54,180 nucleotides of DNA from a virus: positions 1-54,180 of the IMG/VR virus record IMGVR_UViG_3300009073_000006; one strand, 5' to 3'. Below are positions 4,863 to 54,180 of the stretch, one piece after another; the first letter of the stretch is position 1; each line of letters begins with the position of its first letter. A program made the translations under genes and the position numbers. Below the pieces are notes generated by a model, which was given only the letters and a program-made list of their open reading frames with translations, ran no database searches and was not told where the DNA came from.

Positions 4863-5564
4863 ATGAGTACCTTTTCAGAGATTGTTGACGCAGTAGCTCA
4901 AGACACTGGACGTTCCGGTGCAAAGCAGCTACCGTCTGTCATTCGCGCAGTTAATTCCACGTTAATGGATTTTGAAACTAACGATAGTGAATACCAGCGC
5001 AGTGAGTTCGCTTACACGCACGATTATGAACGCTTCGGACAACAGAACGCTTTTGAAAAATGCAGTATCCCGCTTCCCGCAGACTACCAACGCATTGAAG
5101 CTATTATCACAGATTTAGATCAGATAGTTCATCGGGTTAAACCGGGACTTACTTCGATCTTATCTAAAGATAAAAACCGCTACTACATCGCAAACGGAAT
5201 GTTGCACTTTGCGGCGTGTTTTAAAAAACATATTTATATATCTTACTTTCGTGTTCGTAGAGATTTTCTTTACTACCCACAACCAATGCGTTTAATCAGA
5301 ACGTCATTAAACCCTATGCACGATTGTGCCTATGAGTATCGGCATCCTTCTACGGATACTTGGATACCCTACGATCCGACTAACGAGCAAATGCTACAAA
5401 GCTTTAACCGACACACTGATTGGATTTGCGACTTGTATGGTAAGATCGTTGAACTAGGCGCAGCAAGCACACTACATAACCGTTCAGGTAACGAGTCAAT
5501 AGGTGCGAGATTGTATCAAGAATACCAAACAAAAAGGACTGCGATAGTCGCAGGCCGTGTATAA
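4863..5564 (+). CDS. hypothetical protein, possible head-tail adaptor / tail tubular protein A-like
   Basis: 233 aa with a GAGG RBS. Its position after the capsid genes matches the gp11 slot of T7-like maps. Weak positional inference. Confidence 0.3.
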   Translation: MSTFSEIVDAVAQDTGRSGAKQLPSVIRAVNSTLMDFETNDSEYQRSEFAYTHDYERFGQQNAFEKCSIPLPADYQRIEAIITDLDQIVHRVKPGLTSILSKDKNRYYIANGMLHFAACFKKHIYISYFRVRRDFLYYPQPMRLIRTSLNPMHDCAYEYRHPSTDTWIPYDPTNEQMLQSFNRHTDWICDLYGKIVELGAASTLHNRSGNESIGARLYQEYQTKRTAIVAGRV

Positions 5565-5758: not shown

Positions 5759-7429
5759 ATGCCCGTCGGTGCTAACTCTCAAAATAACATCGGCGGGTTT
5801 AATCCCGCAGTATCTCGCACGCAAAGTTCAGCAATCCGTGTGCTTAACGGTAAAAACTTTCGTTGGGATTTTGACGGGCCTTTTTCTGGTTTTGGTAATA
5901 GCCAAGTTAGTGAACAGTTTACTGGTCATAGTTTGTTGCCTTATTACGCGACATTTAACGTTGAAAGCAAAGCTTATTTGTTTACACCTAACGGTGTTTT
6001 TGAGCAAAGAGAAAGTAATGATCCTGACAAGTGTTATACTGATTTAATTTGCAAACTAGCTTTCACCCCTTATCAGTGGCCTTGCGAAGAAGATAACGAC
6101 TATCCTTGGTCACAAGCTTTTGTTGGTGATAGTTATTATTTTTCACACCCGACTGTTGGGTTGATTAAATACAACACTTATAAATGTGAGTGGTCTTGTT
6201 GCGAGTTAGTCGGAGAAGAGATTGAAAACGGCGAAGGTACTTTTTATGATTTTTCATGCCCAGAAAAAGGCTGTTTAATCACTGGACCTATTTTTGGTAT
6301 TACACAAGCTGGAAACCGCTTAGTCATTCAAGCCCGCGATACTATCGGCTGGTCAGCAATCGACGACGGTTGTACTTTGTTTTGCGATCCGTTTTGCGGC
6401 GGTGGTTTTGTTAGTAGTTCAGTTGCTCGTTACGGTAAGCCGCTAGGCGTTTATGAAACCGCAGACGGGTTTGCAGCTTTTACAAGTAACAGCATTATTC
6501 GCGGTGCGACTATTGACAGTATTGGCGCGTTTAATGTAGCTACGTTAAGCAATAAAACTTTTCCTATCAATCCACACGCTATTACTCAACTTGACAATTT
6601 TCAAATAATGTTTTATAGCAATAAAGGTTTGATGCTTTTAGCTAATAACCAACTTGCTCCATTTGAGCCAGAGTTAAGTAACTGGTTTCATAAACTACTG
6701 CGCAATACTAATATTCGTTATGTTCAACACGGTGTTAAGCTGGCTTATGCTGAAGACACTGACGAGTTATTTGTGAGTGTTATTGGTAAGCCTAGTGAAA
6801 AGCTAAACCCTAATGTATATCCGCGCGCGTTGGTTTATAAGTTTATTTCAAAAAAATGGGGTAGCTTTGATCAACCTCACTATTTTATCGGACCCGTTAA
6901 TGTCTCGCATAAAGTCGCGGGCCAAAATCTTGGGTTTATTAGCTGGTCTAATTATCTGCATCATTTTGACTATTCGCTAACTAACTCAGTTGGTGCTGGT
7001 TTAGAGTTAGATAATCTCGATAGTTTTATAACTGTCGGTCCTTTTCAGATAGCTTACGAGCAGCTAAGATCAGTTAAAACAGAGTTAACTTCATTTGATA
7101 TTCATACAGAAGTTAATAATAGTTCTGGATTTAATCTAGGAATTATTGACAGTTATCAAGAAGATTTTAAATCTAGTAATTGGGAAACCTGTGCGTTTGC
7201 TAACTACGATGCAGATGTTTATTTATTATCTTCTAAAGATGCTCACGGTACTAATGAAAATTGTGAACAAGCAGAACTTTTAAGTAATGAAGACTGTTTT
7301 GTTAAAAATTACACTTGTTCTGGTGTGGGTGATTATCATACAATTTCGATAGTCGCATCTAGGGTCGGCAGTTATTATTCAATAAATATGATAAGTGTCC
7401 AGCTAGTAAGCAAAGAAACCAAAGCCTAA
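5759..7429 (+). CDS. hypothetical structural protein, possible tail tube/nozzle
   Basis: 556-aa ORF in the tail region, tightly packed with its neighbours. Positional only. Confidence 0.3.
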   Translation: MPVGANSQNNIGGFNPAVSRTQSSAIRVLNGKNFRWDFDGPFSGFGNSQVSEQFTGHSLLPYYATFNVESKAYLFTPNGVFEQRESNDPDKCYTDLICKLAFTPYQWPCEEDNDYPWSQAFVGDSYYFSHPTVGLIKYNTYKCEWSCCELVGEEIENGEGTFYDFSCPEKGCLITGPIFGITQAGNRLVIQARDTIGWSAIDDGCTLFCDPFCGGGFVSSSVARYGKPLGVYETADGFAAFTSNSIIRGATIDSIGAFNVATLSNKTFPINPHAITQLDNFQIMFYSNKGLMLLANNQLAPFEPELSNWFHKLLRNTNIRYVQHGVKLAYAEDTDELFVSVIGKPSEKLNPNVYPRALVYKFISKKWGSFDQPHYFIGPVNVSHKVAGQNLGFISWSNYLHHFDYSLTNSVGAGLELDNLDSFITVGPFQIAYEQLRSVKTELTSFDIHTEVNNSSGFNLGIIDSYQEDFKSSNWETCAFANYDADVYLLSSKDAHGTNENCEQAELLSNEDCFVKNYTCSGVGDYHTISIVASRVGSYYSINMISVQLVSKETKA

Positions 7430-18923: not shown

Positions 18924-19394
18924 ATGACTGATTATTCGTCCGATAAAGAACTAACCGACTTAGATGTAAGTCAGTACAATATTGTCACATACGAACGTCC
19001 CGCCGAGGCTATTGGAGTGATTGCTACGTTGCTGCATTTTGATTATCGTTATGCTAAAATGCCAATGTCTCAAGTTATTAATGAAATCACTTCAAGTGTA
19101 GCTGGAAATAACTACGTTGTAGTTGTTCGTCAGGTTGGTGAGAAAATTCAACCAGTTGCTTTGCTTGGTTGGAAGTATGTTAACGAATATACTTTGCTTT
19201 TACAGGCTAATGATATCAGACCGCTTTCACCTGCGGAGTCTAATCAAGGTGATATTTGTTTGCTTAGTGTTTTTAGTAGTCCTTTTTCTTCACCTCATCA
19301 AATGATGGAGTTTATGCAAGAAAATTCTAAAAAATTACAATCACTAAAAGGGGTGGTAGGTCTTGACAGTTTATTCAATCCAGTGCAGTATTAA
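18924..19394 (+). CDS. HlyC/CyaC-like toxin-activating acyltransferase-fold protein (tentative)
   Basis: 156 aa. By-eye alignment to remembered HlyC/CyaC sequences: AIGVIATLL, MP, NNYVVVV, PVALLGWKYVNE, QGDICLLSVFSSPFS against LG.V.WLW, WP, QYVLL, PVAYCSWA, GDRKWFIDWIAPFG. The canonical His and Asp are not obviously conserved. Confidence 0.4.
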   Translation: MTDYSSDKELTDLDVSQYNIVTYERPAEAIGVIATLLHFDYRYAKMPMSQVINEITSSVAGNNYVVVVRQVGEKIQPVALLGWKYVNEYTLLLQANDIRPLSPAESNQGDICLLSVFSSPFSSPHQMMEFMQENSKKLQSLKGVVGLDSLFNPVQY

Positions 19395-29938: not shown

Positions 29939-30598
29939 TTAATTATCTAGCATGTTGTCGGTGATGGTATCGTACAACGCCATATCAAAATCATACAACG
30001 CTTTAGCGTCGGCCAAAGCTTCGTGCTTACTAGTGTCGGGGCGAAAATCGGCGGCAAGACCGTGATACCTGTGGACGTCACGAAGCGAACAACCTGAACC
30101 ATAGTGCCAAGGCAATCTAGGCGCTTTTCTGTCTTGAGGTTTAGCAAACGGTAACTTGCAAGACCTCTCAAGTATCCCGATATCGAAGTTACCCCATGTG
30201 AACACGGTGTGATTTTCACGTGACATTAACGGGTTGTAGTCAGACGCCACCATAGTGAACATTGAATAATTGCAAAACTCAATGCAATTAATTATACTCT
30301 CTGCTAGTTCTTCCAAAGCTTCGCTTAGATGAACTCCGTGCTCAAATGAGTGCAAGTAACGCGAGTAAAGTTCTTTGTCTTTCAGCCATTGGATAGTTTC
30401 TGGATCAGACTTGCCGCCTTGTGGTAAGATAAAATCACTAAACTCGCCAATTTTTCTACCATCAATAACAATCACTGCACCGATTTCCCAAACGTTGCAA
30501 CCTGCTGTAGTTCCATCTGTTTCAATGTCGAGGTAGGTTTCGATTTTTGGCTTGTGAAGTATAGCCACGTTAGATGTTTCAGTAGATGTATCAGTCAT
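29939..30598 (-). CDS. DEDDh 3'-5' exonuclease (DnaQ-like)
   Basis: Start trimmed to ATG 30598 (AAGGAG 6 nt upstream). ExoI YLDIETDG, ExoII TWGNFDIGIL, ExoIII HEALADAKAL. Confidence 0.7.
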   Translation of the reverse strand: MTDTSTETSNVAILHKPKIETYLDIETDGTTAGCNVWEIGAVIVIDGRKIGEFSDFILPQGGKSDPETIQWLKDKELYSRYLHSFEHGVHLSEALEELAESIINCIEFCNYSMFTMVASDYNPLMSRENHTVFTWGNFDIGILERSCKLPFAKPQDRKAPRLPWHYGSGCSLRDVHRYHGLAADFRPDTSKHEALADAKALYDFDMALYDTITDNMLDN

Positions 30599-30624: not shown

Positions 30625-32049
30625 TCATTCCATAAACTTGCCAAGCAAAGTCGCAGCTTTACCTTTTTGTTCTCTTACTCTGTTTTTGCTAAATGACTTG
30701 TCAAATTTACCGTGGATTTTATTACGCTCTTTTACTTCGTCACTTAATGTAGGCATAACAATATCAATTTTCTGGCCTTCGTGTTGCTTAGTAGCTAGTT
30801 TGCAAAGCCCGTTTGTACAGAAGGCGTTTAACGCAGCCTCAAACTCTCTAACCTGCATGTCACGTAGCATGTTGCTGCGCAGTACCGACACCGAAACTCC
30901 CAGCGGCCAAGATGAAGTTATCATTTCTCGCATGTGTTGTTTAGCGATAGTTATTTTGTCTAAGCCGATCTCTCCTAAGCTTGCTGCCATGTTTATTTCG
31001 GTGGCTTCTAAGATCACTTGTGCGTCTGCTACATCACGGGGCAGTACCTCGTCACGGTTTTCTCCGGCGGCCAAGACCATGCAAAGCTTGATTAAATGGT
31101 CTTGCCTACGCTGGTCGTAGTGTTGAAAACGACTGTCATTAATCTTCGAAGTATATCCAAAATATAACTTAGTCATTATCTCGACAGTTTGATCTGCCAT
31201 TGAAAATTCGCCGATAAAGTTAAACGCTTTATTCAAAGCTTCACCGACGACAGCTTCCAGTTTTTTATCTAACTCGGGCGCGGGAAATACCTTGGGTCTA
31301 GCTACCCCTTCATAAACCATGATAGCCCTAGACGTAAAACCCTGCCCAACACTTTGCGGAGGTAAATGCGCAGCTAAACTTGTCGGGGTAATGCACCCTA
31401 ATAAATTCAAATAAGGATAATCAATATCTCTGGTTTCTTTTGATAATGTGTATTGATAATCTGCTGGACAGTAATAAATCTCTGTCAGAAAGTTAATCAT
31501 CTCGATCTGGTTTAATCCGATCAGCGTAGCTAACTCGTCAGCAAATATAAACAAACTTCTCGAAGTTACGTTATCATAATCATACGATCTGGATTTAGGT
31601 GCTTTAGCCTTAGCTGCTCTGTGCTTTGCAAACGCATCTGCGACAGGATTGTTTGTAATCTCTGGGTCAGTTATCATATCGGATATCTCGTCAGCTAGTT
31701 CTTCGTTTTTAGCTGACTGTCCGTAGGCATTGTAAAAAGAACTTAACAAACCTTGCTTTTTACCTGCGGTATCTGTTGGTCCGAATTTACAATTAGTGTA
31801 TTTTTCTAGTAGCTTTTTGCCTAAAGAAGCTGCTGACGATTTTCTAACCGCCGCAGGTCCGACGAGAAAAATATACATATTACTGAAATGATTAAACCGT
31901 CCAACTTGCAAAGAGTTATCACGATCTAAACATGCGGCCAAGGTACTGATACCTGACCACATATTAAAGATCAAAGGACTTTCTGAATTACCGCAGTAGT
32001 CCAGCCAATCTTTGATAAACTTGTTATGAATATCGTCGGAGTTTAGCAT
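30625..32049 (-). CDS. P-loop NTPase, putative replicative (SF3/D5- or DUF3987-like) helicase
   Basis: Walker A is LVGPAAVRKSS and Walker B is LFIFADEL. 474 aa in the replication module. Subfamily unverified. Confidence 0.5.
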   Translation of the reverse strand: MLNSDDIHNKFIKDWLDYCGNSESPLIFNMWSGISTLAACLDRDNSLQVGRFNHFSNMYIFLVGPAAVRKSSAASLGKKLLEKYTNCKFGPTDTAGKKQGLLSSFYNAYGQSAKNEELADEISDMITDPEITNNPVADAFAKHRAAKAKAPKSRSYDYDNVTSRSLFIFADELATLIGLNQIEMINFLTEIYYCPADYQYTLSKETRDIDYPYLNLLGCITPTSLAAHLPPQSVGQGFTSRAIMVYEGVARPKVFPAPELDKKLEAVVGEALNKAFNFIGEFSMADQTVEIMTKLYFGYTSKINDSRFQHYDQRRQDHLIKLCMVLAAGENRDEVLPRDVADAQVILEATEINMAASLGEIGLDKITIAKQHMREMITSSWPLGVSVSVLRSNMLRDMQVREFEAALNAFCTNGLCKLATKQHEGQKIDIVMPTLSDEVKERNKIHGKFDKSFSKNRVREQKGKAATLLGKFME

Positions 32050-32130: not shown

Positions 32131-32589
32131 TTAGATCAGCGGGTGATGGTTAGACAACATTATCTGCGCAAGCTTACTTGCGTTTTCAACTGAATGATTA
32201 CCTTGTTGTTTTTCGGGAATATCAAACTCACCGATACCACGCATTTCAGAACTAACAAACATAGCTACGCTCGATGCGAGCAAAATAAAATGAGGTAAGC
32301 CTGAGTGTGCGTCGTAATGTTCACCGCCCATGATAGCGCGTGTGTGCCGATCTACTGAATTAATCAGGTCGGTTTGATTGAGACCCTTTTCCCAGTTGCG
32401 GGCAGAGTATTTTTCTCTATCGTAGTTTAATCCTGCGGCTGCGGCACAGATCAATTCATAAGGGACTAGCGATGTGTCAATTTTTGTCCCGATACTGGCA
32501 CGCTGTGCGCCGCTTTCGCGTTCGGGTTGTGAAGCTTTAACTTTAACGGTTGCTTTAGCTTCGGCTTTAGTTTTTCTTTTCTTAGTCAT
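32131..32589 (-). CDS. MazG-like all-alpha NTP pyrophosphohydrolase (DUF5664 / dATP-dGTP diphosphohydrolase-like)
   Basis: REKYSARNWEKGL....SVDRHTRAIMGG....SGLPHFILLASSVAMF fits the remembered KYG.RNWEKG / S..RH signature. Confidence 0.5.
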   Translation of the reverse strand: MTKKRKTKAEAKATVKVKASQPERESGAQRASIGTKIDTSLVPYELICAAAAGLNYDREKYSARNWEKGLNQTDLINSVDRHTRAIMGGEHYDAHSGLPHFILLASSVAMFVSSEMRGIGEFDIPEKQQGNHSVENASKLAQIMLSNHHPLI

Positions 32590-37553: not shown

Positions 37554-38525
37554 TTATCCTACCAATTCTTTTATCATCGCCCCTGTAAGGATACAGATGG
37601 GCGGTAATGTATTTGGGTCTCGCGGTGTTGGTTTAGGTAATCCTGCCTCTTTAGCGTAGTCACCATAACCCCACGGCGGAAACTTGTGTTCTGCGGGGGC
37701 TACTCTGCATCCGCCAGAAATTCGCGTCGGCGATCCTTTAGTTGACATCGTGCTAGTCATGCCGTCGTTTGCTTGCGTCGCATAGATAACGTCACCAAAT
37801 GCCGCAGGTACTTTTGCAGCTTGATTACCTGATGTTGACAACACTTGTACGTGTGTTTCGTCTCGTTTTGATGCACCTTCGCGGATAGTGTGTGTGTAAA
37901 AGTCTCTATGCGCAGTCATGATAACGTTGCAAGGTAAACTGTTAAGCTGACTCGCGATTGGGTCAAGGACTAGGTTACAATAATTAAAAAACGCAAACAA
38001 GTCTTCGCTGCCTTTAGCTGTTTTAACAGTAATCTTACCTTCAAACGGGTCTAGTCCGTGCAGGTTTTTAAAGTCCTCAACAACGTCGCGAGTAATCTGT
38101 GTCCAGCTATCAACTAACAAAACATCGTTAATCGTAAACAAACTCAAGTCAACAGCGTAATAAAGCTGATCATCTTTTAAAACACTAGGACTAGACATTT
38201 TCTTGCGTGTTGCAGGGCAGTAAATAAACTGACTATATTCCAACATCAGCATTAAAAACGCAGCCATAGTTGAACCTGTAGCGGATTGGTTAACTGGTAT
38301 CCTTGACACACGCTTTTGTGCGTCTGGAGATAACTGCTTTAAAATACCTGTGTTATTTTCGCCGTCTAAGATCGTGAGATTAAACCCAGCTTCCGCCGCA
38401 GTACCGCTCCACCAAGTTTTTCGCGCCTTTGATGGACCGTAAACTAGCGTCCGCGCGGGTTCTATTAAACCTTTGGTTTCGGCTTCATCGCCAAATGATA
38501 GGTTAGTGAATTGATTAAAGTCCAT
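37554..38525 (-). CDS. RecA-fold AAA ATPase (Sak4 / AAA_24-like)
   Basis: Walker A is LVYGPSKARKTW and Walker B is VLLVDSW. ATG 38525 overlaps the upstream TGA. Confidence 0.6.
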   Translation of the reverse strand: MDFNQFTNLSFGDEAETKGLIEPARTLVYGPSKARKTWWSGTAAEAGFNLTILDGENNTGILKQLSPDAQKRVSRIPVNQSATGSTMAAFLMLMLEYSQFIYCPATRKKMSSPSVLKDDQLYYAVDLSLFTINDVLLVDSWTQITRDVVEDFKNLHGLDPFEGKITVKTAKGSEDLFAFFNYCNLVLDPIASQLNSLPCNVIMTAHRDFYTHTIREGASKRDETHVQVLSTSGNQAAKVPAAFGDVIYATQANDGMTSTMSTKGSPTRISGGCRVAPAEHKFPPWGYGDYAKEAGLPKPTPRDPNTLPPICILTGAMIKELVG

Positions 38526-45605: not shown

Positions 45606-45800
45606 TTAATATATTTCCTCAACTGTAGTTCTAAACAGCTTTGGGTTTCCTCTTGGTCGCTGAATTAGTGTATTAAATTGATATTTTCCATCTACTTTAT
45701 TTAAAGGCCCTGCTTCTGACGTTATTTTTGCAACTTCTTCTGCTGCGGTTAAACTTTCATACATTAATGCTTCTGCAAATCTTTTATGCGGCTTTGACAT
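45606..45800 (-). CDS. hypothetical protein
   Basis: 64 aa with a GGAAGAAAG RBS. Confidence 0.5.
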   Translation of the reverse strand: MSKPHKRFAEALMYESLTAAEEVAKITSEAGPLNKVDGKYQFNTLIQRPRGNPKLFRTTVEEIY

Positions 45801-46087: not shown

Positions 46088-47047
46088 TCAATCGTCCATC
46101 ATGTTTAAAAATTCATCCGCTAAATCTTGCAACTCCGCAACCTTGTCTAGTTTCTGTTTCTTAATCACACTAGCCAAATGCACACTGCGTTGCATAAAGT
46201 TAACTTCTCTCCCTAACAACGCGTTCATAGGTTGTTTAGCTAACCCTCGTAACGCATTATCAATCCGATTTTCGTTAATTGTCAAAACTTGCTGGGCGCG
46301 ATTTTGTAGTTCTTCACTAGTCTCGCTCACATCATTATCTAACTGCAAACAAAACCCGTCAACTAAGTTAGCCAAAACCTCACCAACCCATTGTAATACT
46401 GTATCAACAGTATTCAAATCCTTATTACTGTTAAAAACAAACCCACTCAACCTTTCCGTGGCTTTTTTACTAATTAACTGATTTTCAACTTTCAAACTCA
46501 ACTCAATAACATTAACCAAACTCGCTAATTCATCAAATTCCTTTTGCATCAAACTCGCATAAAGCTTTGCTTTAAACTGCCTAAAAGCTTGCTCGCTTTC
46601 AATCGTCGCGCTAACTGGTCCTTTATTCCCAACGTTATTCTGATACTTTCTACAAAGTTGTCCTAACAAATAAACCGCATAACCAACAGGCTCTTTCGCG
46701 GCTAGTTTCTCAAGATCATCATAACCCGTTCTTATCCACTGCGGCGAGATATTGCTTGCATTTTCGTCACTACAAAACCCCAACCCAAAAACTTGCCCTG
46801 ACTTTGCACAATAAACAACACTCTGCGCTAACTCAGGGTGTTCATTAGTATCCCTAACCGCAAGCTGTTCTGCGATTAACGTTAACCTGCTTTTATTTAA
46901 CTCAACTTCACTAGCCAACGCGATCAAACTATCATCACTCACTACTTCTGCAATCTGGATAATCTTTGCCAAGCTTTCCCAGCTATGTGCCTTGGACGGT
47001 TTTGTTCTGCGTTTAGCTGCGTCGTTAACCTTATCAAATTCGCTCAT
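46088..47047 (-). CDS. hypothetical all-alpha protein, first gene downstream of the iteron region
   Basis: 319 aa with an AGGGAA RBS. Preceded by a sigma70-like promoter at 47089..47116. Confidence 0.55.
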   Translation of the reverse strand: MSEFDKVNDAAKRRTKPSKAHSWESLAKIIQIAEVVSDDSLIALASEVELNKSRLTLIAEQLAVRDTNEHPELAQSVVYCAKSGQVFGLGFCSDENASNISPQWIRTGYDDLEKLAAKEPVGYAVYLLGQLCRKYQNNVGNKGPVSATIESEQAFRQFKAKLYASLMQKEFDELASLVNVIELSLKVENQLISKKATERLSGFVFNSNKDLNTVDTVLQWVGEVLANLVDGFCLQLDNDVSETSEELQNRAQQVLTINENRIDNALRGLAKQPMNALLGREVNFMQRSVHLASVIKKQKLDKVAELQDLADEFLNMMDD

Positions 47048-47088
47048 ATTCCCTGCCTTTACAACTCTTTTATGGTCTTCGCACGGCT

Positions 47089-47116
47089 ATTCTATCAGCT
47101 ATCTCGCGCGTTGCAA
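47089..47116 (-). promoter_or_regulatory. sigma70-like promoter for the middle/replication operon
   Basis: The minus strand reads TTGCAA, a 16-nt spacer, then TAGAAT. The -10 lies about 40 nt upstream of ATG 47047, and the -35 abuts iteron cluster 1. Confidence 0.5.
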
Positions 47117-47121
47117 GCCTT

Positions 47122-47657
47122 AAATTACATAAAATTACGTCAAAATTACACCAAAATTACACACTTTTTCACACTCACCCCCCTATGACCCTCGTTTTCA
47201 CGAAATCACTAGTTAACCTACACTTTTACACCCTATTTATGTCGATTATTGAGTTTAACCTGCTATTCAGCGTGGTTTTAGTGGTCCGCGAGATAACCCT
47301 TGGCAGTTTTTTGGGGTTCAATAAATTTTGTAATGTTATGTAATTCTCTGTAATTTATTAAGTTTATACCTTTAACATACCTCTTTAACACGCTTTTTGC
47401 GAAGCGCTTAAATGCTTAGTTAACTTGTTAGCCCGCACACCTAAAATTAACAAATTACACACAATTACATAACATGACAGGCTTAATTTACTACCCCCAA
47501 ACCTACGATCTACCCCTGTTTTGGCTGTAAACACTACTGTTTTTGCCCTAAAAGGGGGTTCAAATGCGGGTTTAACGCGTTATTTGGTGAAATATAGGGT
47601 CATAGGGGGCGGAGGGGTCTCAGAAACGTGTAATTCTGGTGTAATTCTCTGTAATTC
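47122..47657. repeat. four clusters of phased 8-nt iterons (AAATTACA / TGTAATTT), 13 copies
   Basis: Cluster 1 (+) starts at 47122, 47132, 47143, 47154. Cluster 2 (-) starts at 47329, 47339, 47349. Cluster 3 (+) starts at 47444, 47452, 47462. Cluster 4 (-) starts at 47629, 47640, 47650. Spacing is mostly 10-11 bp (one 8-bp interval in cluster 3). Confidence 0.85.
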
Positions 47658-48005
47658 TTGCCGTGAGCGCCTCATAGAACGCGGTTAGCCTCTGAACCAC
47701 CCTATGATCTAGCTTTTGCCCTAGCTGCGTTGTGTGAGGCTATTTTCGCGGTCCTTGCACGATCTATGCACGATCTAGGCCAGACATTGCCCCAGCCCTG
47801 TCCTCCGACACGGCAATCTTGAATTACACAAAATCAAACTTTTAACTTTTGGGATAAGCTTTCACTACTTCGCATTTTTGGCTTTGAATATTCTCTTTTT
47901 ATTAGTGTTTTCAATAACTTTAAACAAACTAGTGTTGAGTGATCTTAAAACTTAATTATGTAACTTTTGGTGTGTTTTTTCACTACCTCAAACCGCTTTT
48001 TACAC

Positions 48006-48038
48006 ACAAAAAAGGCGACTAACCTAAGCCAGCCGCCT
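48006..48038 (-). terminator. rho-independent terminator ending the early operon
   Basis: The minus-strand RNA reads GGCGGCU GGCUUAGGUU AGUCGCC followed by UUUUUUGUGUGU. It lies 30 nt after the stop of gene 48069. Confidence 0.6.
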
Positions 48039-48068
48039 AATCTTGTTTTTCTTTATCGCTTTGCGATA

Positions 48069-48902
48069 TTAGTCAAAATCAATATCCTCGATAATAACAT
48101 CGCCAGCCTCGGCTTGATCATTCCGCGTAGCTTTCCACGCTTCAAGCTGTGCTAGTTCTTTCTCTAGATCAAGCGTTTCTGGATCTTTACTGTCAGGCTT
48201 GGGCTTGTATTCGTTCTTTACATAGTCCGTGATCTTGCTTTCCAGAACTGCAATGATCTTTTCCCACAATTCATTTGGCAAACTAGGGTGTTGCGCCTCT
48301 GCCAAGTTAGCATCGGCAAGACACGCTTTCAACGCGTTCATATCAAACGAGATACTAACACCCTTGTTCCGGTACGCAGCGTTAAGCGATTTAATAACAT
48401 CAGGCGCAACTGCACGAAACGCACGCGTTGCCATACGCTTTTTGCCACTAGAAACACCACTACGCGCGCCAGTGATCAACCCACCGATATCCTGCGGCAA
48501 TGCAAACACTGGGCTAGACTTTAACGCGCCACGTGCCATTGCGCCGATCTTACGCGAGAAACTTGCAAGCAAACTATCGGCAACAAATTCGCGGCCTTTT
48601 TCGCTTTCCATCATCTTGTCAAGGTCTGGCAACTGGTAAACAAACACGCGTGGCTTGTCCTCATAAGTCCCCGCATCACGCCGATCAATAAACACTGACC
48701 AACCCTCTTGCAAAGACTCCATATCATTGACCAAACTAAATAGCGACTTTTCGTCCAACCCTTCCATAGCGTCTGCCATAGCGCCGGACATTTCCTCACC
48801 GTTGTCTTCTTTGATATCATTATAACTAAACACCTGCGGATAATTCACGCTCGTGGTCGCGCTTGTCTCTGCGGTGTCTTCACTTGTGTTTTCGTTTGTC
48901 AT
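48069..48902 (-). CDS. hypothetical protein with highly acidic termini
   Basis: 277 aa with an AAGGG RBS. Last gene of the early operon. Confidence 0.55.
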   Translation of the reverse strand: MTNENTSEDTAETSATTSVNYPQVFSYNDIKEDNGEEMSGAMADAMEGLDEKSLFSLVNDMESLQEGWSVFIDRRDAGTYEDKPRVFVYQLPDLDKMMESEKGREFVADSLLASFSRKIGAMARGALKSSPVFALPQDIGGLITGARSGVSSGKKRMATRAFRAVAPDVIKSLNAAYRNKGVSISFDMNALKACLADANLAEAQHPSLPNELWEKIIAVLESKITDYVKNEYKPKPDSKDPETLDLEKELAQLEAWKATRNDQAEAGDVIIEDIDFD

Positions 48903-48996
48903 GTTATTAACCCTTTCAAGGTTTGCTGATTATCTGCGAATTGACCTGATTGCCTTTTCGCTAAAATGATCCTGACATAGTATCCTACAAATAACA

Positions 48997-49037
48997 ATAG
49001 CCTGATTAGCTTTTTATCACTAATCAGGCTATTTTTT
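48997..49037. terminator. 13-bp perfect hairpin, bidirectional terminator-like
   Basis: ATAGCCTGATTAG, 10-nt loop, CTAATCAGGCTAT. T6 follows on the plus strand and UGUUAUUUG follows on the minus strand. Confidence 0.55.
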
Positions 49038-49066: not shown

Positions 49067-49339
49067 TTAGTTGTATTCACCTTTCAACAGTTTCTTATGA
49101 CGTTGTTTCCTTTCTTCCATCTTTCTCAGCAACTCAAGCATCGCTCGCAACTGACCATAAACCTCGGGCTTTGATCCGCGATCAATATAACTTAAATCTC
49201 CCCCCGTTTGCGTATCGCTAACACGGTACAGGTTATTGCTTCGATAAAACACTAAATCAAACCCCGTCTTATCCGCTAACCTGCGTGTCAACGTTTCGCA
49301 ATCCTTAACCGTCACGCGGTTACTTTGCTCGCTTGTCAT
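49067..49339 (-). CDS. hypothetical protein
   Basis: 90 aa with an AAGGA RBS. Confidence 0.5.
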   Translation of the reverse strand: MTSEQSNRVTVKDCETLTRRLADKTGFDLVFYRSNNLYRVSDTQTGGDLSYIDRGSKPEVYGQLRAMLELLRKMEERKQRHKKLLKGEYN

Positions 49340-49754: not shown

Positions 49755-49976
49755 TTATCCCTTCACTATTTTCTCATTATCAAACCAGCCCGCAAGGCCG
49801 CTCACAATCTCACTAAACCACACACACACAACAAACAGAACAACTAACCCTACTACCGCAAGCATATCCTCAAGCACTTCCCTCTCCGCTTGCTTGCGCT
49901 CTTTTTTGCTTTCAATAGTCCGCATATCGATTCCTAACTTTTCATATTCGTTATTGTTGTCCATATCTTTAATCAT
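49755..49976 (-). CDS. small membrane protein
   Basis: 73 aa. ATGA overlap with the upstream gene. TM segment VVGLVVLFVVCVWF. Confidence 0.5.
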   Translation of the reverse strand: MIKDMDNNNEYEKLGIDMRTIESKKERKQAEREVLEDMLAVVGLVVLFVVCVWFSEIVSGLAGWFDNEKIVKG

Positions 49977-50209
49977 CTTTCTTTTTCTGCTACTGTTAAA
50001 TTGTTGTGTAGTTTTGCTATAGCATTAGCTTGCCTTAACTCATCTGCACGTCTTAATCCTCTCGCGTTGCCTGCGTTGTCAAAATACTCACTATCTTGCA
50101 CTCTGCCCGCTCTATTGCACCACAAGGTTACAAAACCCGACTTTCCTGTAATTCTAACCTCTTTCAAAACATAGTCACCGTTTCTGCCGTTTGTTACCTT
50201 ATACATCAT
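49973..50209 (-). CDS. hypothetical protein
   Basis: 78 aa with an AAGGAAAG RBS. Confidence 0.5.
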   Translation of the reverse strand: MMYKVTNGRNGDYVLKEVRITGKSGFVTLWCNRAGRVQDSEYFDNAGNARGLRRADELRQANAIAKLHNNLTVAEKER

Positions 50210-50708: not shown

Positions 50709-51145
50709 TGTCGTGTCCTCTCGTTTGATTAACTCGTGCCATATCCCTTGCACATATCTGCACTAACGGTCAAGTATTTTGTTTGTTGAATGTCGCACTA
50801 ATGAAAAACAAATATACATATGTGACATATACCACACACTATACCATCGCCTATAGCCTTGCTCATTGGGTGATAGGGTAGTGTGGCGTTATTTGGTGGA
50901 CGACAATGGACGATCTAAAACGTTATAGATGGTGATTAGCTTGCTATGTGGGGTAATATGGTAGTGCTTGAGGGTTTTAGTCAGGAATTAAAGGGGGGGG
51001 GTATACCCCATTTTTGAGTTGGTCGCGTTTGCTATATAAAGACAACCTTACAAAAAAAATTAACAAAAACAAAATAGTGAAATTTAAAGTATGACGAGTT
51101 AGTGTTGGGTTTGGTGAAGAATTTTAAAATTGAGTTAATTCGCCT

Positions 51146-51236
51146 CGCGCGCGCGTGCGCGATAAGTATGATGTGAAGGGTGTGAGAGAGGGTGTGAGAG
51201 AGGGAGAGGGGGGGGGAAGGGGTAGCTAGGGGGCGG
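51146..51236 (+). repeat. (CG)n tract, 12-nt tandem repeat and G-run cluster
   Basis: CGCGCGCGCGTGCGCG at 51146..51161. GGGTGTGAGAGA twice at 51178..51201. G-runs GGG, G9, GGGG and GGGGG between 51202 and 51233. Confidence 0.9.
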
Positions 51237-51348
51237 ATATGAAATGCAATATGTAATTTTACATAAAACAAAGATAATACTAGACAATCGGAGAAATTGT
51301 GTTAAAAATAATCAACCCCGCAAAATTTATGAAATACGAGTTAATGAA

Positions 51349-53677: not shown

Positions 53678-54180
53678 ATGGCTAAGAGAACTAAAAAAAC
53701 CAGAGAAGAAACCAAGCGTGTTCGCGTTGCGGCAGATCGGTTAATGGGCAAAGAAAAGCACGACAAACTAGTTGAGCGGATTTTTGAAATAATTAGTCCG
53801 GGGATTATTAATCACCAAACCCAAGTTAATAAATATTGTGGTTTGTTGATATCCTTAGCTGCGATGCCTATTGCCGATAATGTTGACAAGGCTAAAGCTG
53901 AAGCTTATGCGCTGGGCGAAAGTACAGTAGTTGGAGACACAAGGTATCCTAAAGCCTTGGGGCATATTAACAGCGTTGCGATTAGTATTATGCAGGTTTT
54001 GTTTCCTGCAAGACAGATGTATGGTAGTGTTGAGGTTCAATCAGACAAGCAGCGTGAGACTAGTGGGCTAGTAGCTGCAATGAATATTCATGCAAAGCAG
54101 TTTAAGCATTATACTAATTTGAGCAGGGTTATTACTGATAGCTTGGCGTTGAACTTGGGTATTGCGATTAATACGTGGGA
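53678..54180 (+). CDS. portal protein, 5' portion (continues at base 2 after the circular junction)
   Basis: ATG at 53678, 4 nt after the terL stop. The frame has no stop to the window end and is in phase with ORF 23..1681 once the 123-bp duplication is collapsed. Confidence 0.6.
   Translation, partial: MAKRTKKTREETKRVRVAADRLMGKEKHDKLVERIFEIISPGIINHQTQVNKYCGLLISLAAMPIADNVDKAKAEAYALGESTVVGDTRYPKALGHINSVAISIMQVLFPARQMYGSVEVQSDKQRETSGLVAAMNIHAKQFKHYTNLSRVITDSLALNLGIAINTW
54058..54180. repeat. exact 123-bp duplicate of bases 1..123 (circular closure overlap)
   Basis: Base-by-base identity: gactagtgggctagtagctgcaatgaatattcatgc ... attaatacgtggga. Confidence 0.95.

Follow-up and report, generated by a model that had tools for sequence, protein, structure and literature searches.

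Phased iterons in a conserved, gene-free gap at the head of the replication module of an uncultured phage: a putative protein docking region

At the P1 oriR, pSC101 and F origins, iterons of 17-22 bp overlap the promoter of an autoregulated initiator gene, with a recognisable Rep encoded downstream, and the herpesvirus origins oriL and oriS are palindromes that carry initiator sites on both arms and lie between the transcription units of replication proteins. Plasmid and prophage-plasmid iteron origins have been reviewed (PMC4980987). In the origins of SaPIs and phage-inducible islands, short iterons (5-8 bp) for a Rep helicase, several per side, flank a melting region on both sides and in opposite directions (PMC9371898). 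The origin of the Vibrio PLE lies inside a repeat-bearing non-coding region of 2.7 kb (PMC7145576), and lactococcal c2-type origins are non-coding regions with promoters on their flanks (PMC7150918). Response regulators of the OmpR/PhoB family, in turn, bind 2-5 direct repeats at 11-bp spacing (PMC3798270).

The locus described here belongs to a phage sequence of 54,180 nt (IMGVR_UViG_3300009073_000006), which was analysed along its whole length and is called the window. It is a gap of 1021 bp between two minus-strand genes, one coding for a protein of 277 aa (48069-48902), the final gene of the upstream, early operon, and the other for a protein of 319 aa (46088-47047), which opens the downstream operon. 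The latter contains, besides the 319-aa gene, small ORFs and genes for a Dda-like helicase, a nuclease, DNA polymerase A and a DUF3987 helicase/primase, and the gap sits at the head of this replication module. An earlier note on this DNA had found no credible ORF in the gap, and the public gene calls for the source contig place none there. Conserved small ORFs were rejected, the lone translated similarity among relatives being one DNA block that matches in several frames and on both strands, and no tRNA genes were found in the gap. An intrinsic terminator closes the 277-aa operon (48003-48038, minus strand); a scan recovered it with an 11-pair stem at 48013-48038 followed by a T run, where one had been reported at 48006-48038. 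Terminator-like hairpins occur at the equivalent place in four relatives (L058, L059, L179 and L183).

All 13 iteron sites that had been listed are present, the repeat count confirms four arrays of alternating orientation (A to D), and the starts, described as mostly 10-11 bp apart with a single 8-bp interval, were re-measured as 10, 11 and 11 bp in A, 10 and 10 bp in B, 8 and 10 bp in C, and 11 and 10 bp in D. The strict 8-mer AAATTACA has only five copies in the region by pattern count; the true core is the 7-mer AATTACA/TGTAATT, with 11 of its 22 window copies located within 47123-47828. Three of the 13 listed iterons are degenerate (47132, AAATTACG; 47329, TGTAATGT; 47444, AAATTAAC), the last one being a TGTTAAT variant, the form used by relatives, and there is a fourteenth, solitary copy at 47822-47828. 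TGTAAT occurs 12 times in the gap as opposed to 0.57 times per kb elsewhere (Poisson p = 1.7e-12), and a weight matrix derived from the sites reaches 13 bits or more only within 47129-47828, and nowhere else across the 54 kb. The sites are therefore non-random, being far above chance and confined, by their weight-matrix matches, to one locus. Multiple direct repeats unique to a single locus, as in iteron-type theta origins, are thus found here in the form of 13-14 sites in four arrays. The description of a whole kilobase packed with iterons was right about the sites but not about their extent: the arrays span 47122-47656 only, and 47660-48010 is variable filler, unconserved among relatives.

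The four arrays form two nested pairs within one large inverted duplication, which was overlooked in the earlier note. This degenerate inverted repeat of ca. 235 nt (arms 47133-47366 and 47442-47656) has an alignment score of 131 versus 24 ± 3 for shuffled sequences; its z-score is 33 in the window, compared with 10 in L058. At its left end, array A (47122-47161, minus strand) holds four iterons, TGTAATTT in minus-strand sense, and upstream of it is the left G-run box (47177-47192, minus strand; AGGGTCATAGGGGGGT in minus-strand sense). Next to array A lies the sigma70-like promoter of the 319-aa gene and replication operon, as noted before and now recovered by a scan (47116-47089, minus strand), with the structure TTGCAA-16-TAGAAT and an extended TG; the array A iterons are centred ca. 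44, 54, 65 and 76 nt before the predicted transcript start. Array B (47329-47355, plus strand) has iterons at 47329, 47339 and 47349, and two of them are part of the best-conserved block of the gap (47301-47345), together with AATTTATTGAACCCCAAAAAACTGCCA (minus-strand sense). Its identity is 93% with L058 (45 nt) and 89% with L059 (35 nt), and read on the plus strand it contains TTGGCA-16-TAAATT (47300-47327), of which the -10 hexamer is kept and the -35 hexamer is unconserved in L059 and L183. A sigma-54 promoter and a conserved hairpin in the same 45 nt were each considered and rejected by eye, being lost in L059.

The spacer between the inverted arms (47367-47441) bears a small hairpin, CGCTTTTTGCGAAGCG (47391-47406), and the sequence GTTAAC (47419-47424). 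On its other side, array C (47444-47469, minus strand) is made up of two iterons, with their ends at 47469 and 47459, and of a degenerate copy of the TGTTAATT type (47444-47451). It is followed by the conserved box TTTCACCAAATAACGCGTTA (47573-47592, minus strand), which has a mirror copy at 47196-47215 (plus strand) and recurs in L059 and L180, and by the right G-run box AGGGTCATAGGGGGCGGAGGGGTC (47596-47619, plus strand), the mirror of 47177-47192. Array D (47629-47656, plus strand) has three TGTAATT iterons, at 47629, 47640 and 47650, and adjoins a TTGCCG-11 nt-TAGAAC sequence (47658-47680, plus strand). By comparison with 47116-47089 we read this sequence as a mirror-image relic of the 319-aa promoter, with a spacer that is too short for a sigma-70 promoter.

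An exhaustive HMMER search, with the contigs of its matches then looked up, was the only source of relatives. At the DNA level, GenBank phages gave no match in near or distant mode, and no relatives came from scans of IMG/VR and the JGI metagenomes anchored on the 319-aa protein, on the 277-aa alignment or on P0005, or from a metagenome scan with the conserved box TGAACCCCWAAAAACTGC, whose matches were dominated by an unrelated bacterial gene start. A triple-iteron pattern had 56 matches in viral contigs, mostly giant-virus tandem repeats and none of them related by tblastn, and wider alignments of the flanking families contained no block conserved enough for searching. In five of the relatives, a gene-free gap (927 bp in L058, 966 in L059, 795 in L183, 608 in L180 and 529 in L179) lies after the 277-aa homologue and before the 319-aa homologue and the Dda-like helicase. 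The 277-aa homologue is inverted in L181 and L182, leaving a 785-bp gap between divergent genes, and three more distant relatives have gaps of ca. 450-500 bp upstream of the 277-aa family gene. TGTAAT or TGTTAA is enriched in 7 of the 10 gaps, and the order and orientation of the arrays (D< C> B< A>) is kept across relatives, though most of the sequence is randomised.

The comparison of iteron number and phasing among relatives that the earlier note had proposed gave a divided answer: number varies, and the 10-11-bp spacing is mostly kept while the repeat itself drifts. The repeat is of the TGTAATT type in the window, L058 and L183, and of the TGTTAAT/C/G type in L183, L181 and L059; the latter also carries three to four copies of TTGTAAGGGA (TGTAAGG among the lineage repeats), with the phasing kept. 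The exceptions are L180, where TTGATT occurs in pairs at 12-bp spacing, and L179, with three dispersed copies of AAGTCGATG (GTCGATG among the lineage repeats) and no phased array. Drift of the repeat with retention of the spacing is what would be expected for the site of a co-evolving protein, and not for an RNA or a bend. Intrinsic bending by phased A-tracts, as the sole explanation, was also rejected because L059 keeps the phasing with the A-tract-free TTGTAAGGGA.

How does this locus compare with described systems? The order iterons-promoter-gene, with further iteron sets of opposite orientation nearby, is that of P1 oriR, pSC101 and F, but the iterons are here of 7-8 bp and lie upstream of the -35 hexamer, and the 319-aa protein matches no Rep family. 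The herpesvirus origins belong to a eukaryotic virus and are much shorter, near-perfect palindromes, with unrelated sequence and proteins. As in SaPI origins, there are short, opposite-facing iterons on both sides of a centre, several per side, at sites unique within the element that adjoin replication genes. However, SaPI origins have a clear AT-rich centre and lie directly downstream of the gene for their cognate, self-loading Rep helicase, whereas here the centre is not clearly AT-rich, the upstream 277-aa gene lacks helicase motifs (its product has no helicase or P-loop family match), the DUF3987 helicase/primase gene (30625-32049) is 15 kb off, and four arrays are spread over 535 bp together with G-run boxes. 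[quoted passage not shown] Unlike this locus, the c2 origin requires no phage protein and acts by way of a non-coding transcript, the PLE origin has RepA_N iterons, and 7-bp arrays in helical phase, set in mirror-image modules, occur in neither of them; as to promoters of the c2 kind, 47116-47089 is conserved and the promoter-like 47300-47327 is conserved in its -10 only. Two other kinds of repeat-bearing loci found no counterpart among the ORFs scanned: there was no actin-like ATPase or ribbon-helix-helix family, as for the iterons of a type II plasmid centromere (parC/ParR), and no integrase or recombinase family, as for an attP with arm-type and excisionase sites. The genome looks virulent.

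In our preferred reading, to which we give a probability of around 0.5, the gap is a protein-bound platform that controls the promoter of the replication operon and most probably houses the lytic origin. Its core (47089-47690) would be a cis-acting platform for the assembly of a sequence-specific DNA-binding protein, which would recognise TGTAATT and bind head-to-tail on one face of the helix, with 3-4 sites per array, over a region made of two mirror-image arms. On the side of the 319-aa gene, the outer unit with the order [G-run box]-[array A]-[promoter] would be the working module that turns the replication operon on or off, that is, the genes for the 319-aa protein, the Dda-like helicase, the nuclease, DNA polymerase A and the primase/helicase. 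The inner arrays B and C face each other and take in the stretch of the genome that melts most readily; the lytic origin most likely lies here, where protein bound on both sides would open the DNA for helicase loading. The right outer arm, with array D and its decayed promoter, would be a relic of an ancestor with divergent promoters, an arrangement still present in L181. The proposal of an origin, or of an early-to-middle switch, operated by an iteron-binding protein is thus favoured by the conservation of the element, by the phasing kept as the repeat drifts and by the fixed distance from array to -35 hexamer; computation does not separate origin from switch, and both may be true.

As regards the putative origin, the inner arrays C> and <B converge across a spacer of 56-105 bp in the window, L058, L059 and L183. 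This spacer is not markedly AT-rich in the window, L059 and L183, and of all 60-bp windows in the genome, the one with the least stable duplex (47320-47379) is array B itself. The region contains two of the eight relaxed matches to a DnaA box in the genome (47165 and 47998), a weak enrichment, and one of the seven IHF-like matches, all of them weak and unconserved. GC skew follows gene orientation and is therefore uninformative as an origin marker.

For the promoter part, the last iteron begins 13 nt ahead of the -35 hexamer in the window and L058 and 14 nt ahead of it in L183, and four genomes (the window, L058, L183 and L181) have the unit [G-run]-[array]-TTTAGGC-[-35..-10] before their 319-aa family gene. 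In L181, L185 and L186, the 277-aa family gene has a second [G-run]-[array]-promoter copy upstream of it. A G-run with a promoter also occurs at the late-gene promoter region, in the window as well as in L185, which favours a purely transcriptional role of the outer arms.

These same data feed the main rival, possible but clearly behind, in which the arrays are only activator or repressor sites for the promoter of the 319-aa operon and replication starts elsewhere. The binder would then have a winged-helix, OmpR/PhoB-like geometry, whether encoded by the phage or supplied by the host as a response regulator like ArcA, whose half-site the TGTTAAT variant presumably resembles, and the distal arrays would act through DNA looping or be relics of a divergent promoter pair. 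At ompF, distal regulator sites lie hundreds of bp upstream. The rival accounts well for a proximal array at a fixed distance from the -35 hexamer in four very divergent genomes, for the presence of the module, in L181-type genomes, before the 277-aa as well as the 319-aa family gene, and for the G-run and promoter of the late genes. The arrays themselves, with 3-4 head-to-tail repeats at 10-11 bp and the proximal one abutting the -35, are also like the sites of ArcA, OmpR and PhoB, for which 2-5 direct repeats at ca. 11 bp, centre to centre, are typical (PMC3798270). However, a gap of 0.5-1 kb in six relatives is far above the need of one promoter, arrays B and C and the best 45-nt block are ca. 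200-400 bp away from the promoter with no convincing conserved promoter adjoining them, and iterons are found at no other promoter in the genome. Moreover, no winged-helix domain of the response-regulator type was found among the 50 phage ORFs scanned against Pfam, and the repeat is not the same from one phage lineage to the next, which points to a binder encoded by the phage.

A mirror-symmetric, bidirectional origin primed by transcription appears unlikely. Inward promoters beside array B (-10 at 47322-47327, plus strand) and array C (-10 at 47490-47485, minus strand) would produce transcripts that cross the centre and meet an RNA-sense G-run ca. 262-286 nt downstream (47596-47619, plus strand; 47192-47172, minus strand). 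The G-runs would hold persistent RNA-DNA hybrids, as happens in ColE1 RNA II and in the mitochondrial CSB II element, and each hybrid would prime one leading strand; the protein on the outer arrays A and D would gate the process and also drive the replication operon.

The promoter-like TTGGCA-16-TAAATT within the best-conserved block and the mirrored TAAATT that adjoins array C could alternatively produce one or two transcripts whose RNA is the functional product, as in the long non-coding RNA suggested earlier. The gap folds with a z-score of -2.9 over 47334-48045 on the plus strand, but such z-scores are modest, and the predicted stems that account for them are simply inverted iterons, whose number and spacing vary among relatives. 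Rfam covariance models gave no match at gathering score, only two chance-level ones (E = 0.2-0.8), both over the terminator. Genomes whose flanking protein is 54-60% identical share hardly any sequence apart from the arrays and three short boxes, and the -35 hexamer is not conserved in L059 and L183. We regard a non-coding RNA locus as very improbable.

We give equally little credit to a packaging or genome-end region, with the arrays as pac- or cos-like sites for terminase recognition or as flanks of ends with short terminal repeats. Outer arrays A and D, with four and three iterons, recall the 4 + 3 hexamers of P1 pac, the assembly circularises with an overlap of 123 bp, which fits permuted or terminally repeated genomes, and the L059 contig ends ca. 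300 bp past the gap. Nevertheless, other contigs break at unrelated positions, the module goes with promoters of 319-aa and 277-aa family genes and not with terminase genes, and the putative small and large terminase genes lie 3.2 kb off, beyond another intergenic region of 0.6 kb that is the more usual place. Least likely of all is a functionless relic between two operons, left by an inverted duplication or by a small mobile element that is non-autonomous and has multi-site inverted ends: the large imperfect inverted repeat has repeated sites at both ends, but six or more divergent relatives have the region at the same position, its architecture is kept while the sequence diverges, which indicates selection, there is no further copy elsewhere in the genome, and no transposase was found in the ORFs scanned.

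As to the putative binder, the flanking proteins had been proposed for this role and described as orphans. This last term does not apply, since the 277-aa family has 53 distant homologues and the 319-aa family is conserved beside the gap in all syntenic relatives; neither family had a match in Pfam, PHROGs or PDB sequence searches. Both proteins are acidic (277-aa, pI 4.6, with an acidic C-terminal tail, ..IEDIDFD; 319-aa, pI 5.0) and neither shows a DNA-binding domain, so adjacency is what speaks for them, the 277-aa family adjoining a gene-free iteron region in all relatives examined. Pfam and PHROGs likewise revealed no DNA-binding domain in 20 other small and medium proteins, and no initiator was identified; Trans_reg_C and other DNA-binding Pfam families were absent from the 50 window ORFs scanned. 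The AlphaFold models had a mean pLDDT of 47 (277-aa) and 36 (319-aa), too poor for use. Besides the two flanking families, candidates for the binder include small basic proteins of the early region, encoded at 49973-50206, 49067-49339 and 45606-45800.

The gene-free stretch is thus, as read from sequence and its comparison, a real and evolutionarily conserved docking region for a putative protein in an uncultured lytic phage. Since iteron arrays at promoters and origins are already well known, the gain is local and not conceptual: the phage group is new, but the kind of element is an ordinary one. Nearly all early and replication proteins of the group lack an assigned function, and a conserved cis-element with a clear repeat code offers a handle on the replication start site and on the switching of the replication operon in such phages. 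Because the repeat varies with the lineage (TGTAATT, TGTTAAT, TGTAAGG, TTGATT, GTCGATG), its co-variation with protein sequences could reveal the binder, and also give a function to one conserved family that has no assigned role.

The phage group has an SU10-type capsid and a family A DNA polymerase, is known only from uncultured members and has no close relative among GenBank phages. In the right G-run box of the window, GGGTCATAGGGGGCGGAG is also present in the distant relative L179. Finally, the variable part of the gap (47660-48002) contains a tandem TGCACGATCTA x2 (47756-47777), and only one other 100-bp window in the genome is less stable than its AT-rich stretch 47882-47981.

The largest stretch without a called gene in the surrounding 17-kb locus is the gap at positions 47048–48068, situated between the minus-strand genes for a 277-aa protein (48069–48902) and a 319-aa protein. 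All 13 iteron sites described in the earlier note were found here with the same spacings, in four arrays designated A (47122–47161), B (47329–47355), C (47444–47469) and D (47629–47656). The iteron core is the 7-mer TGTAATT, and 11 of its 22 copies in the window fall in 47123–47828; the gap contains 12 copies of the hexamer TGTAAT, versus 0.57 per kb elsewhere (p = 1.7e-12), and in a scan of the whole window with a weight matrix made from the iteron sites, scores of at least 13 bits were confined to the gap region. Scans also recovered the early-operon terminator (48013–48038, plus a T run) and the promoter (TTGCAA-16-TAGAAT, 47116..47089) proposed in that note. No tRNA genes or Rfam families were detected in the gap. 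Its lack of a credible ORF was likewise borne out: no small ORF is conserved among relatives; the only translated matches between their gaps correspond to a single DNA block read in several frames and on both strands. The iteron gap is real, and better supported than could be known from a first reading.

The window (contig Ga0209187_1000652 from JGI metagenome 3300027509) is a complete phage genome, a circular assembly of 54,057 bp plus a 123-bp overlap from assembly. Bases 1–123 and 54058–54180 are identical; 123 is a common k-mer length in assemblers, and the identity of the ends reflects circular assembly, not necessarily a physical terminal repeat. The plus strand carries structural genes, including that for an SU10-type capsid protein, at 23–29331 and from 51244 to the end, and the minus strand carries early and replication genes at 29939–50617, among them those for a Dda-like helicase, a PD-(D/E)XK nuclease, a family A DNA polymerase and a DUF3987 helicase/primase. 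DNA searches found nothing resembling the window among GenBank phages, and the polymerase shows only about 23–28% identity to its best matches.

A word-indexed search found no match to the 319-aa protein and two to the 277-aa protein (60% and 54% identity), and an exhaustive profile search identified 53 distant members of the 277-aa family. In five contigs, a terminator and then a gene-free gap follow the 277-aa homologue (gap of 927 bp in L058, 966 in L059, 795 in L183, 608 in L180 and 529 in L179); after the gap, contigs of sufficient length carry a 319-aa homologue, a small gene and a Dda-like helicase gene, the L059 contig stopping inside the first gene past the gap. In the pair L181/L182 the 277-aa homologue is inverted, leaving a 785-bp gap between divergent genes, and three still more distant contigs have a gap of about 450–500 bp upstream of the 277-aa homologue. 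A box with the 18-mer TGAACCCCAAAAAACTGC was useless as a search probe, since an unrelated bacterial gene that is very common in freshwater metagenomes also begins with it (ATGAACCC..TGAACCCCAAAAAACTGCTGCTGACCAAGTGGAC..., loci L060–L178).

The earlier note had called for comparing the iterons with those of related genomes. The order and orientation of the arrays (D<, C>, <B, A>) are identical in the window, L058, L059 and L183, and the sequence between arrays is essentially randomised. The gaps are enriched in TGTAAT (window, L058, L183, L184 and L185), in TGTTAA (L059, L183 and L181) and in G-runs (L058, L059, L183 and L180); L180 has TTGATT pairs with 12-bp spacing, and L179 has AAGTCGATG in three dispersed copies. 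The promoter-proximal array of L059 instead contains three to four copies of TTGTAAGGGA, still 10–11 bp apart. To judge from these sequences, keeping the phasing while the letters change is the behaviour expected of a protein site co-evolving with its protein and argues against an RNA structure; mere DNA bending is disfavoured because the L059 repeat contains no A-tract. The long non-coding RNA that had been suggested was rejected, since it has no Rfam match, conservation is limited to the arrays and the stems predicted for it simply consist of the iterons.

In the window, L058, L183 and L181, the gene of the 319-aa family is preceded by a unit composed of a G-run, an array, TTTAGGC and a promoter, and in three of these four the last iteron starts 13–14 nt ahead of the -35 hexamer. 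A second unit of this kind in L181 faces the 277-aa homologue, and L185 and L186 have a G-run and TGTAAT upstream of theirs. L181 also contains four to five tandem 10-bp units (ACACAATTAA, 4932–4985) between the predicted promoter and the start codon of its 277-aa homologue and, past that gene, where there is another gene-free gap, three copies of CTTAACAAACC with 11-bp spacing (6448–6478).

In the window, the four arrays form two nested pairs within one large degenerate inverted repeat (arms 47133–47366 and 47442–47656; alignment score 131 versus 24 ± 3 for dinucleotide shuffles), whose arms also share features other than iterons. Each has one copy of a G-run box (AGGGTCATAGGGGG; 47177–47192 minus, 47596–47619 plus) and one of the box TTTCACCAAAT.AC.CGTTA (47573–47592 minus, 47196–47215 plus), and beside array D there is a degraded mirror-image version of the 319-aa promoter (TTGCCG-11-TAGAAC, 47658–47680). 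In gene sense, the order is terminator, about 350 bp of variable sequence, array D, C-run box, array C, a 75-bp centre, array B with a conserved 45-nt block, G-run box, array A, promoter and 319-aa gene. Units facing both genes, as in L181-type contigs, explain this mirror symmetry: the gap would derive from two divergent promoters, of which the right-hand one may have decayed once the 277-aa gene lay upstream in the same orientation. The 45-nt block (47301–47345), comprising two B iterons and AATTTATTGAACCCCAAAAAACTGCCA, is the best conserved sequence of the gap (93% to L058 over 45 nt, 89% to L059 over 35 nt, and partly recognisable in L183). It can be read on the plus strand as TTGGCA-16-TAAATT, but L059 and L183 do not retain the -35 hexamer, and the "spacer" shows more conservation than a promoter requires. 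The gap also has a second repeat family: its variable part contains a tandem 11-bp repeat (TGCACGATCTA x2, 47756–47777), whose core, TAGATC(G/A)T, recurs near arrays C and D (47503–47510 and 47707–47714). TAGAC/TAGATC is in addition similar to the -35 elements of promoters in L058 and L059.

We consider, with a probability of about one half, that the gap serves as a protein-bound platform for control of the 319-aa promoter and, most likely, also contains the origin. The earlier note had offered an origin or a switch operated by an iteron-binding protein; both fit and are not mutually exclusive. Control of this replication-operon promoter is favoured by the conserved iteron-to-promoter geometry, by the unit's recurrence at promoters across several arrangements, and by likeness to response-regulator sites, which consist of two to five direct repeats at 11 bp (PMC3798270), close to the spacing of the window arrays. 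Transcription control alone, the main rival, is possible, if somewhat unlikely. An origin would agree with the size of the gap, its place at the head of the replication module, the uniqueness of the iteron sites in the genome, and the location here of the least stable 60-bp duplex (47320–47379) and second least stable 100-bp segment (47882–47981) of the genome. Additionally, the inner arrays B and C converge across a spacer, as iteron arrays do in SaPI origins (PMC9371898), and non-coding, repeat-bearing origin regions have precedent in lytic phages and satellites (PMC7150918, PMC7145576). Nevertheless, the centre of the gap is not clearly AT-rich, DnaA-like boxes are only weakly enriched and GC skew is uninformative, which, with the lack of a recognised initiator, weakens a firm origin call. 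Iteron arrays at a promoter or origin are a familiar class, and the gap is not a new kind of system. A functionless relic or mobile element is at odds with the conserved position despite sequence divergence; a partition site or attP lacks partner genes (no integrase, partition protein or transposase families among the window ORFs scanned); and a packaging site or genome ends do not fit putative terminase genes 3.2 kb off, beyond another intergenic region, or contig ends that are not consistently at the gap.

The 277-aa protein is by association the best candidate for the iteron binder, because its family is the only one always adjoining the iteron element. However, its strong acidity (pI 4.6) and an acidic C-terminal tail comparable to those of T7 gp2.5 and SSB make it appear, by analogy, more like a single-strand-binding or adaptor protein. 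A short acidic tail with a hydrophobic tip (..IEDIDFD, ..IEEIDFGL, ..ITELSL, ..ITELKFD) closes the window protein and all of family members P0003–P0008, and resembles the tails by which single-strand DNA-binding proteins contact their partners. In the 319-aa family a YC.KTGQ...PQW..G motif is conserved, and family searches gave no match to any known family; predicted structure models of both proteins were too poor for use. Small basic early proteins (49973–50206, 49067–49339 and 45606–45800) are alternative candidates.

Elsewhere in the early region, a perfect 15-bp hairpin without a T run (AATAGCCTGATTAGT...ACTAATCAGGCTATT, 48996–49033 minus) lies between the genes for the 90-aa and 277-aa proteins and might serve as an attenuation or processing signal within the early operon. 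A 323-aa protein (37554–38525 minus) with a P-loop-like motif (..LVYGPSKARKT..) and no Pfam or PHROG family match is perhaps a divergent ATPase of recombination or replication. A 152-aa protein (32131–32589 minus) matches PF18909, the N-terminal domain of dATP/dGTP diphosphohydrolase (6e-17), which is the MazZ-type enzyme of phages in which 2-aminoadenine takes the place of adenine. Among the window ORFs scanned, none matched a PurZ-like protein (adenylosuccinate synthetase). In the structural block, a 156-aa protein (18924–19394 plus) has a borderline match to HlyC, of the RTX toxin acyltransferase family (24.8 bits, cut-off 25). Between the early operon and the putative terminase genes, the divergent intergenic region (50720–51243) is unusual: it contains a G9 run, then TATACCCC and a TATATAAA (50985–51040), an alternating CG stretch (CGCGCGCGCGTGCGCG, 51146–51161) and, just ahead of the 51244 start codon, an all-purine tract of GAGAGGGTGT-type repeats with G9 at its end (51174–51235). 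A similar G-run/C-run with TTATATAAAT occurs in L185 (ca. 1955–2010), upstream of the genes equivalent to these.
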